This document shows, in pieces, positions 7,061-44,219 of a stretch of 64,000 nucleotides of DNA. How positions within the stretch are numbered: position 1 is the stretch's first letter; each line of letters starts with the position of its first letter. Origin of the DNA: a virus (Duplodnaviria; Heunggongvirae; Uroviricota; Caudoviricetes); IMG/VR virus record IMGVR_UViG_2703718774_000012, one strand, 5' to 3'. The notes under the pieces are model-generated. The model was not told where the DNA came from. It saw only the letters and a program-made list of their open reading frames with translations, and ran no database searches. Made by a program: the position numbers and the translations under genes.

Positions 7061-7077
7061 AGATTTATTAGAGCAAT
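7061..7077 (-). promoter_or_regulatory. C1-repressor-type operator (minus strand reads ATTGCTCTAATAAATCT), overlapping candidate -35 TTGCTC / -10 TAAAAT promoter
   Basis: 16/17 match to recalled P1 C1 operator consensus ATTGCTCTAATAAATTT; overlaps stop codon of HAD gene. Confidence 0.5.
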
Positions 7078-7655: not shown

Positions 7656-8918
7656 TCAGCGGACGTAAATAGTGCCGCCGTTCTCTTTTTCCCATGCATC
7701 GCTACGTGCATAGCAAACATCGAGAAGTCTTCTTGCCGCTGTTTCCTCTAAACCCAATTCGACAACCAACTGCTCATGACGGCGGGTAACCACATCAAAC
7801 AGGGTATGCAACCCTTTAGTTGCCAGATCATCAATGAATTCCGGTTCGAACGGCAGCTCTGTATCTGCCAACATAACCTCTTGCGCCCACTCAACTCGAC
7901 GGACCAATTCCGGGCGGCGGCTTTCCATCTCTTTACAGATCAATTCATGGAAGAACTCTACCCAACCTTCCGGCTGGAACTCGCGGAAAATTGCCAACGG
8001 CTGGAAGTTTGGCATCAACCATTCGTTGATACGGATATCAATGGCATAGCCCATGTCGCAGCAGAACTGATAAGCAAAGTCCAGCTTAGAAACGATATAA
8101 GGACGCTCGTTATTGAACTCTTTAGGCGATGAGATCCCATAAGCCAGGAGGCGCGGGAAGAAGGAGATTTGCCCTAACGTCGGATGAAGTTTGCTTGCAG
8201 GGAAACGGCGCTCAGTAATGCCATACATTTCCTTCTTGAGCGTCGCAAATTTGGCATTCTCATTAACCAGCGCGGTAACCTCTGCTTTTTTATTAGCAAA
8301 TGCCACGCGCGCTTCGCTTGCATCTTTAATAGTTTTTTTGAGCTGTTGGTTAAGGTCGGCGACCTGCTTACGCAGTTCCTGTCGCTCGCTTTTAGCTTTG
8401 TTATAGCGTTTCTCAAGGTTAAAAGGATCAAGTTTCATGATCTCTTTATATTGAGATTTTAGCGTTGAAATCTGTGAGTTCCGCAGTTCAACCATCGCGG
8501 TCATTTCATTGAGTTTTGTTTCCAGCTCAATGCTTATACGTTCGGCATTATCAGCACGCTGGTTGGCGTCATGCGTCGCATCGTCGATCGCGTCCTGTTG
8601 CTGGCGTTTCAAATGTTCAATTTGTAGCTGAAGCTCTTCAATTTCTTTACCCTTCAGACCGAGATCCAACTGCATATTTTCAGCTGCATCTACCAGGGAG
8701 TTATGGCTATCAGCTTCTGCGTTATAAACATCAATAAGCTGTGCGTGAAGCATCTCCGCTGACTGAACCGCATTATCAAAAAAACGCGCTGTGAGGTCAT
8801 CACAACTAACGCGGCGTTGCGCGGCCCGGATGTTCTGGATAATGGCCGGGATACCGGCATTCAGGACGTCAGGGATAGATACATTTTCGATTGATTGGTT
8901 TTGTGCTGAAGTGATCAT
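7656..8918 (-). CDS. large coiled-coil protein (420 aa), function unknown
   Basis: ORF track; long heptad-rich central region (ELQLQIEHLKRQQQD...). Confidence 0.5.
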   Translation of the reverse strand: MITSAQNQSIENVSIPDVLNAGIPAIIQNIRAAQRRVSCDDLTARFFDNAVQSAEMLHAQLIDVYNAEADSHNSLVDAAENMQLDLGLKGKEIEELQLQIEHLKRQQQDAIDDATHDANQRADNAERISIELETKLNEMTAMVELRNSQISTLKSQYKEIMKLDPFNLEKRYNKAKSERQELRKQVADLNQQLKKTIKDASEARVAFANKKAEVTALVNENAKFATLKKEMYGITERRFPASKLHPTLGQISFFPRLLAYGISSPKEFNNERPYIVSKLDFAYQFCCDMGYAIDIRINEWLMPNFQPLAIFREFQPEGWVEFFHELICKEMESRRPELVRRVEWAQEVMLADTELPFEPEFIDDLATKGLHTLFDVVTRRHEQLVVELGLEETAARRLLDVCYARSDAWEKENGGTIYVR

Positions 8919-8919
8919 T

Positions 8920-9138
8920 TCAAAGTTCCGTATTAGCTTGTGCTTCGGTCATTTTTCCTAAGTATGAAGGAGGAAGGACTACGCAATTTGTATCCAGTCC
9001 CTCACCTATGGCAGCCTGTAAAATTCTGGCTAAGGTGAGTCTCTTGTTGCGATACCTGGTGATGACATGCCTGATACCGCCGGTCGGCGTAACAAAGGCG
9101 ATCAGCCAGTAGTGATATTTCCGTCGGAATGGCCACAT
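8920..9138 (-). CDS. hypothetical protein (72 aa)
   Basis: ORF track; AAGGTG RBS upstream of ATG 9136-9138; first gene after operator pair. Confidence 0.45.
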   Translation of the reverse strand: MWPFRRKYHYWLIAFVTPTGGIRHVITRYRNKRLTLARILQAAIGEGLDTNCVVLPPSYLGKMTEAQANTEL

Positions 9139-9152
9139 AGTGCACCTTGTAG

Positions 9153-9218
9153 ATTGCTCTAATAAAAAACGTGATGAGTGTACATCACGTTTTAAAAATA
9201 TGGAATTATTAGAGCAAT
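9153..9218. promoter_or_regulatory. pair of inverted C1-operator-like sites (9153-9169 fwd ATTGCTCTAATAAAAAA; 9202-9218 rev ATTGCTCTAATAATTCC) flanking a 28-bp palindrome
   Basis: Read directly; palindrome AAAACGTGATGagtgtacATCACGTTTT (9166-9193) followed by T-runs on both strands. Confidence 0.5.
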
Positions 9219-23267: not shown

Positions 23268-23296
23268 TATTACACTAATAAATTTATTAGAGCAAT
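23268..23296. promoter_or_regulatory. composite operator: perfect consensus site ATTGCTCTAATAAATTT (minus, 23280-23296) overlapped by inverted partial site; candidate promoter of tRNA-ban operon
   Basis: 17/17 match; TTGCTC -35, 17-bp spacer, TAATAT -10 on minus strand; overlaps the last codons of the methyltransferase gene. Confidence 0.6.
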
Positions 23297-27578: not shown

Positions 27579-27595
27579 ATATTTATTAGAGCAAT
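27579..27595 (-). promoter_or_regulatory. C1-type operator (minus strand reads ATTGCTCTAATAAATAT)
   Basis: 16/17 consensus match immediately upstream of the 27223-27507 / rdgC / dmt operon. Confidence 0.55.
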
Positions 27596-42531: not shown

Positions 42532-42548
42532 AAATTTATTAGAGCAAA
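42532..42548 (-). promoter_or_regulatory. C1-type operator upstream of kilA (minus strand reads TTTGCTCTAATAAATTT)
   Basis: 16/17 consensus match 70 nt upstream of kilA start. Confidence 0.5.
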
Positions 42549-44202: not shown

Positions 44203-44219
44203 AAATTTATTAGAGCATT
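44203..44219 (-). promoter_or_regulatory. C1-type operator (AATGCTCTAATAAATTT) with TTGACC-N17-TATAGT promoter for c4-icd-ant
   Basis: 16/17 consensus match; strong sigma70-like promoter immediately downstream on minus strand. Confidence 0.5.

Follow-up and report, generated by a model that had tools for sequence, protein, structure and literature searches.

An annotated C1 operator pair at the pmgR promoter of a P1-like phage encloses a putative one-way terminator hairpin

What is the role of a perfect palindrome placed between two facing copies of one 13-bp sequence, in the short gap between two genes that are read in the same direction? This question is raised by positions 9153-9218 of the window, i.e., the whole 64,000-nt stretch of IMG/VR virus record IMGVR_UViG_2703718774_000012 that was analyzed here. 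A sequence-only reading of the locus had described an inverted pair of operator-like sites around a terminator-like 28-bp palindrome in a 5' leader, and had proposed a bidirectional terminator combined with a repressor-gated attenuator or, alternatively, a looping element. We hold with high confidence that the interval comprises the C1 operator pair and the promoter region of pmgR-pmgS. By its match to phage P1, the feature is one that is already known, namely, the annotated P1 operator pair OpmgRa/OpmgRb together with the promoter PpmgR. Within it, the palindrome emerges as a conserved hairpin that probably terminates transcription on the sense strand.

The operator pair and its place in the P1 genome

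The 5-kb stretch around the interval shows 99.0% identity to bacteriophage P1 and 99.7% identity to a P1-like phage, and we regard the studied phage as P1-like on this nucleotide identity. At the locus itself, a 64-nt core of the studied interval is identical to AF234172 82153-82216, the pmgQ/pmgR intergenic region of P1. The element lies within an 81-nt gap separating two minus-strand open reading frames (ORFs) of 233 and 72 amino acids (Table 1). These are pmgQ, which RefSeq NC_005856 labels “glycosyltransferase,” and pmgR, in agreement with the earlier placement of the element between a glycosyltransferase-like gene and a 72-aa gene. The pmgQ stop codon (TAA, 9222-9220) is found one base before operator a. 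A Pfam search assigned neither PmgQ nor PmgR to a family and gave for PmgS only a sub-threshold match to PF25785, below the cutoff of that family. Passages in PMC10695390 and bioRxiv 10.64898/2025.12.28.696737 cite pmgR as reported to be essential for making infectious particles. The CRISPRi data of PMC10695390 are uninformative on pmgR, the pmgR guide itself having failed to score.

A repeat finder places the outer arms at 9153-9165 and 9206-9218 (13 nt each, 100% complementary, 40 nt between them), such that two perfect 13-bp inverted copies of ATTGCTCTAATAA surround the palindrome at 9166-9193. Both sites contain this perfect 13-nt core within a 17-mer match to the C1 operator consensus ATTGCTCTAATAAATTT, and the two asymmetric 17-bp operators face each other across 32 bp, or 49 bp from center to center. 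With up to three mismatches allowed, the consensus is matched at nine sites in the window against 0.33 expected, a count reached in 0 of 100 shuffles, and the operator matches are thus not explained by chance. The exact 12-mer TTGCTCTAATAA is present in six copies in the window. PMC8546580 describes 22 dispersed C1 operators in P1 that share this asymmetric consensus, as well as the corepressor Lxc and the antirepressor Coi as modulators of C1.

Both sites correspond to catalogued operators, in sequence as well as in annotated position. In AF234172, OpmgRa is described as a “monovalent C1-controlled operator” that controls expression of pmgR and pmgS, and in the P7 record this pair carries the names Op(sht[a])/Op(sht[b]). 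We observe the same locus, the same bases, and the same flanking genes pmgQ/pmgR as in the P1 and P7 systems, with no sequence difference. Following the P1 and P7 annotation, we consider the two sites to be genuine C1 repressor operators, and the inverted operator-like sites that had been proposed to flank the palindrome are thereby confirmed in sequence and given their names.

Table 1. Features at the pmgQ/pmgR junction and in the adjoining genes, with positions in the window
Feature	Positions	Strand	Description	Basis
pmgQ	9220-9921	minus	233 aa; final gene of upstream unit	ORF list and P1 annotation
OpmgRa (former Op86a)	9202-9218	minus	ATTGCTCTAATAATTCC; 14/17 consensus match; identical to P1	annotated protein_bind 82152-82168 in AF234172 and NC_005856
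Annotated -35 of PpmgR	9212-9217	minus	TTGCTC; inside operator a	record 82153-82158
Alternative weak -35 (candidate)	9200-9205	minus	TTCCAT; 17 bp upstream of loop -10; overlaps operator a 3' end	weight-matrix scan
Annotated -10 of PpmgR (predicted)	9189-9194	minus	TAAAAC; in hairpin 5' arm	record 82176-81
Hairpin	9166-9193	minus	AAAACGUGAUG-UACACU-CAUCACGUUUU; 11-bp stem, 6-nt loop	folds, covariation, d-score
Candidate -10 in hairpin loop	9177-9182	minus	TACACT	alignment and weight-matrix scan
Putative terminator U-tract	9161-9169	minus	TTTTTTATT (U6AUU); overlaps operator b	sequence and tail score
OpmgRb (former Op86b)	9153-9169	plus	ATTGCTCTAATAAAAAA; inverted relative to operator a; 14/17 consensus match	record 82201-82217, complement
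Shine-Dalgarno sequence	9143-9148	minus	AAGGTG; 4 nt ahead of pmgR ATG (9138-9136)	read from sequence
pmgR	8920-9138	minus	72 aa	ORF list and P1 annotation
pmgS	7656-8918	minus	next gene after pmgR	

Further C1 operators are seen elsewhere in the window. Just past the 3' end of dmt, two convergent C1 17-mers at 23269-23296 overlap by 6 bp (ATTACACTAATAAATTTATTAGAGCAAT); judging by its map position, this “bivalent” pair is probably Op72a/b of P1. It displays the same convergent polarity of asymmetric 17-mers as the pmgR pair, with the ATTGC ends pointing outward. However, its overlapping sites lie only 11 bp apart from center to center, whereas the pmgR operators are separated by the 49 bp given above, with promoter and hairpin between them. 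Single C1 operators with one or two consensus mismatches are found at 7061-7077 (minus), 12817-12833 (plus), 27579-27595 (minus), 42532-42548 (minus), and 44203-44219 (minus), the first two being OpmgT (Op88) and O26 (Op82), respectively, by comparison with AF234172. At ~11919-11935, the expected place of P1 Oppp (Op83, upstream of pmgN), there is no consensus match at three or fewer mismatches, and either Oppp matches the consensus poorly or the window differs from P1 there.

The pmgR promoter and its candidate -10 elements

A predicted sigma-70 promoter, PpmgR, is annotated between the operators in AF234172 and NC_005856. Expression during P1vir infection bears on it at the level of genes, in the form of log fold changes for which the length normalization is unstated (PMC8201110 Table S1). 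At 10 min, the wild type displays values of 6.9 to 7.4 from pmgO to pmgQ, 9.02 for pmgR, and 9.99 for pmgS, and the dksA mutant displays 6.1 to 6.6, 9.00, and 9.09, respectively, which corresponds to a 4- to 8-fold rise at the junction between pmgQ and pmgR/pmgS. Since pmgR is the shorter gene (219 nt), this rise opposes any gene-length bias. The rise points to a promoter that is active in the pmgQ/pmgR interval, and we conclude that such a promoter exists here, its exact hexamers being predicted. The operator pair overlaps or abuts this promoter, which is active when C1 is inactive, as in the P1vir data. At 30 min, the gene-level values are 11.66 for pmgQ, 10.81 for pmgR, and 11.70 for pmgS, with no clear drop that persists downstream (PMC8201110).

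In the same table, pmgR-pmgS and pmgT-pmgU-pmgV (~7656-9138 and downstream, minus strand) are among the most abundant P1vir transcripts at 10 min. The levels of these “putative morphogenetic” genes match those of ant1, parA/B, and cre and are far above those of true late genes, an early abundance that would not be expected of genes for head and tail assembly.

For a comparison of the promoter elements, relatives of the locus were collected by scanning IMG/VR for inverted exact 12-mers with a gap of 30 to 50 nt. All 120 loci returned represent this same locus, with a gap of 40 nt (rarely 41), and because exact 12-mers were required by the search, invariance of the outer stem among them is an ascertainment artifact. 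The resulting alignment (A1) combines the IMG/VR loci with Cronobacter phage JK004, of which PmgR is 81% identical to P1 PmgR, and a Salmonella Newport plasmid, and comprises four sequence lineages. We observe in this alignment that the annotated -10 varies among relatives (TAAAAC, TGAAAC, TAAAGC, and TGAAGC) and that positions T48, A49, and T53 of the hairpin loop (TAnnnT) are invariant, the loop being TACACT in P1 and TATCAT in other lineages.

In addition, promoters were scored with a rough sigma-70 weight matrix. The best sense-strand match has its -10 at the dyad center in all six lineages scored (P1, L072, L058, JK004, Citrobacter, and Pantoea). For P1, this rough matrix yields 6.4 for TTCCAT-17-TACACT versus 5.2 for the annotated pair, and both candidates are weak by consensus. 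A simple promoter scanner picks TTTACT-16-TATCAT in JK004, and simple promoter and terminator scanning of the studied locus reported no promoter and no terminator. Where the public P1 annotation has the -10 at TAAAAC, we thus favor the loop hexamer TACACT as probably the better candidate in P1, a preference held with moderate confidence. A -10 in the loop would place the pmgR start at about 9170-9172 on the minus strand, with operator a then covering -48 to -32 and operator b covering +2 to +18.

With the -10 in the loop, transcription of pmgR would begin right before a T6 run (G/A-UUUUUU..., 9161-9172, minus strand). At some E. coli promoters, reiterative transcription is favored by initially transcribed sequence of this kind; that it occurs at the pmgR start is pure speculation. 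Finally, a strong antisense promoter-like sequence, ATGATA-18-TAAAAT, is seen inside the element in relatives with the TATCAT loop, at 2423-2452 of the JK004 sequence (L002) and at the equivalent position in L072, and is lacking in P1.

A conserved hairpin and its distribution among P1-like elements

The palindrome AAAACGTGATGagtgtacATCACGTTTT consists of two 11-nt arms (9166-9176 and 9183-9193) that are 100% complementary according to the repeat finder, with a 6-nt loop. Relative to shuffled sequences, the minus-strand RNA of the element folds with z = -5.1 (-30.8 kcal/mol) and the plus strand with z = -4.0, and the P1 palindrome taken by itself folds on both strands, at -13.4 and -13.1 kcal/mol. 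On the sense strand, a stem of 7 to 11 bp (-8.5 to -12.9 kcal/mol) is directly followed by U6AUU. A terminator index of the d'Aubenton-Carafa form assigns the sense strand, with the 7-bp stem, d-scores of +23 to +26 (+23 for the studied hairpin) and the antisense strand scores of ≤0; the d-score falls slightly below zero once all 11 bp of the stem are counted. The simple terminator scanner misses the hairpin because the stem runs into the U-tract, of which the first four U residues pair with the A-tract. U-runs had previously been described on both sides of the palindrome, a description that does not hold for the plus strand: the run TTTTTTATT belongs to the minus strand, and the plus strand has only four T residues, all of them already within the stem, followed by AAAAA (antisense tail, TTTTAAAAA).

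Like the intrinsic terminators found in E. coli and in phages of this host, among them ones that overlap the next promoter, the hairpin has a 7-bp core (four of seven pairs being G-C) that can be extended by A-U pairs, directly followed by U6AUU where a transcription unit ends. It differs from typical intrinsic terminators in that it contains the -10 of the downstream promoter and has a repressor site on its U-tract, and in that the terminator is a predicted one.

Conservation of the inner helix was assessed over 19 distinct sequences, in which 97% of the inner-helix cells are paired, versus 39 to 54% over the whole structure with slid partners. In two pairs, both bases have changed in a compensatory manner, one from G-C to A-U and the other from A-U to G-C, probably through no more than one or two evolutionary events. 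Six pairs have G·U variants that pair only in pmgR-sense RNA, which indicates that the sense hairpin is kept while the antisense hairpin decays. The inner hairpin is present with differing sequence in the P1 lineage (arms AAAACGUGAUG and CAUCACGUUUU), the type 2 lineage (AAAACAUGGUG and CACCAUGUUUU), and the JK004 lineage (GAAGCAUGGUG and CGCCAUGUUUU), and operator b overlaps the U-tract in every P1-type, type 2, and JK004 locus. Sense folds reach -14.0 kcal/mol versus -5.8 kcal/mol for antisense in JK004, -10.2 versus -5.0 kcal/mol in L100, and -14.0 versus -9.7 kcal/mol in L127. Across the variants, the sense fold (-10 to -14 kcal/mol) is as stable as the antisense fold or stabler, with three singletons displaying the opposite.

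This conservation with covariation argues for a structure that is maintained by selection, and the palindrome that was called terminator-like from its letters behaves as a selected RNA hairpin with terminator features in its folds, covariation, and d-score. We consider it probable, with moderate confidence, that the hairpin is a one-way, sense-strand intrinsic terminator for the upstream pmgN-pmgQ unit. The P1 record, over its stretch 74,000-85,500, does not annotate this terminator, and this reading is an addition to the public annotation. No Rfam family was found for the hairpin, the sole match, to the model of a plant miRNA hairpin, being due to chance (19.6 bits versus a gathering score of 211; E = 0.37). 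A late-promoter box for Lpa was also considered and rejected, the -22 box of LP26/LPpmgL (TAGTCATTT) being unlike the palindrome.

Beyond these lineages, the inner hairpin is absent from loci on Citrobacter and Pantoea plasmids. A Citrobacter freundii plasmid, encoding a PmgR with 35% identity to P1 PmgR, carries ACCATACTAATT-N20-AATTAGTATGGT around TATCAT, and a Pantoea plasmid, encoding a PmgR with 45% identity to the Citrobacter homologue, carries AAGATACTAAAATATG-N13-CATATTTTAGTATCTT around GATATT. As in P1, an inverted operator-like pair in these plasmids (L125 and L132 for Citrobacter, L126 for Pantoea) brackets a -10 just upstream of the pmgR homologue. Unlike in P1, the operator sequence is another one, the arms are 13 to 20 bp apart, and there is neither a hairpin nor a U-tract. 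The Citrobacter motif (A/C)ATACTAATT has 14 matches against 2.8 expected in 50 kb (L129, NZ_CP056338.1, 1-50000), often just upstream of genes, which identifies it as the Citrobacter element's own operator-like motif. A dispersed operator-like motif, AGATACTAAAAT, is also seen in the Pantoea plasmid. Comparison of these elements implies that the specificity of C1-type repressors has co-evolved in distant P1-like phage-plasmids, with a CTAA core in common. Bracketing of the pmgR -10 by a pair of operators is thus an old layout, conserved across P1-like plasmids. Other searches returned few relatives: PmgR found only two loci among genome contigs, both identical to P1, the Citrobacter PmgS homologue found one close relative among viral contigs, and a tblastn search of phage D6 for PmgR homologues was negative.

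Proposed mechanism and competing explanations

We propose that in a lysogen, C1 at operator a would cover the -35 or upstream part of the pmgR promoter and C1 at operator b would cover about +2 to +18, and that both together would shut the promoter, some form of cooperation between the two bound repressors being presumed. When C1 is absent or inactivated, the pmgR promoter would fire early. The upstream unit is served, according to the P1 record, by PpmgN, which adjoins the operator Oppp, as well as by LPpmgL, a late promoter situated further upstream, and the sense hairpin with U6AUU would terminate transcripts from this pmgN-pmgQ unit, including late transcripts from LPpmgL. With the -10 inside the hairpin, in either the loop or the 5' arm, pmgR transcripts would begin within or after the hairpin and would escape termination. 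Such transcripts, with their first base in the loop or the 3' arm under either -10, would lack the 5' arm and could not form the hairpin, which would act only on transcripts arriving from upstream.

A more elaborate form of this proposal is put forward tentatively, as we think it unlikely to hold in full. It pictures a nested insulator-promoter module, in which the upstream terminator hairpin would hold the downstream -10 in its loop, which would make locally started transcripts immune to it, and the C1 pair would clamp both, the operator on the U-tract blocking initiation and also boosting termination as a roadblock; the hairpin would then be an insert that arose within an older layout of a pair bracketing the -10, one common to P1-like plasmids even of differing repressor specificity.

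A separate division of labor between the two operators, which we judge improbable, would have operator a repressing initiation and C1 on operator b stalling polymerase arriving from pmgQ at the terminator, with termination much stronger in lysogens than in lytic growth as the outcome. The overlap of operator b (9153-9169) with the U-tract (9161-9169) in P1-type, type 2, and JK004 loci fits such a roadblock, as does the moderate strength of the hairpin alone. However, C1 operators also adjoin PpmgN (Oppp) and overlap the pmgL promoters (O26), which would leave little to block in a lysogen, and the hairpin-less relatives retain the operator pair, so that the pair does not need a terminator.

It is quite improbable that the hairpin serves mainly RNA stability or processing with little termination, either by protecting the 3' end of pmgQ mRNA or, together with the outer stem, as an RNase III-type substrate. 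Read-through RNA could indeed form a 64-nt, two-tier stem of 13 and 11 bp at the -30.8 kcal/mol noted above, but the outer stem is a by-product of the inverted operators and is interrupted by a 12-nt one-sided bulge, and the conserved U-tract directly after the inner stem is a signature of termination.

The function originally proposed for the locus, which combined a bidirectional terminator with repressor-gated attenuation in the pmgR leader or, alternatively, saw here an element for DNA looping from one operator to the other, is in our view very improbable. It draws on the perfect palindrome of P1, which folds on both strands and is flanked by an A-run and, on its opposite side, a T-run, and on the 49-bp spacing of the operators, across which bridging would be possible in principle. 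C1-mediated looping has been described for the c1 region. Termination in both directions is nevertheless disfavored by the orientation of the flanking genes, which are on the same strand, by an antisense tail of TTTT and then AAAAA that lacks a U-tract (d ≤0 versus +23 for sense), and by the relatives, which keep the hairpin on the sense strand only, the antisense stem having decayed in JK004. The attenuator does not fit either of the predicted -10 elements, as the annotated TAAAAC and the loop TACACT would both place the start within or after the hairpin and leave it outside the pmgR leader. Moreover, the Citrobacter and Pantoea plasmids have the operator pair without any hairpin.

Least probable of all is that the inner palindrome acts as DNA and not as an RNA hairpin, either by binding a dimeric protein (e.g., a host factor or an activator of late genes) or by forming a cruciform, since, for all the perfect dyad symmetry in P1 and the two double changes of type 2 that also preserve DNA symmetry, many variants break this symmetry yet keep sense G·U pairing (three positions in JK004 alone), the -22 box of LP26/LPpmgL does not resemble the palindrome, and only one side has a conserved T-run.

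The one-way sense terminator at the end of pmgQ, with its support from covariation, and the loop -10 for PpmgR would be small additions to the P1 map, the former being unannotated to date. To these is added a bracketing layout that is conserved across P1-like plasmids with different operator sequences. Beyond careful annotation, the finding matters little. P1 is a standard engineering chassis, and pmgR-pmgS, as a self-contained, early-firing, C1-controlled unit that would be insulated from pmgQ, may be useful for genome refactoring.
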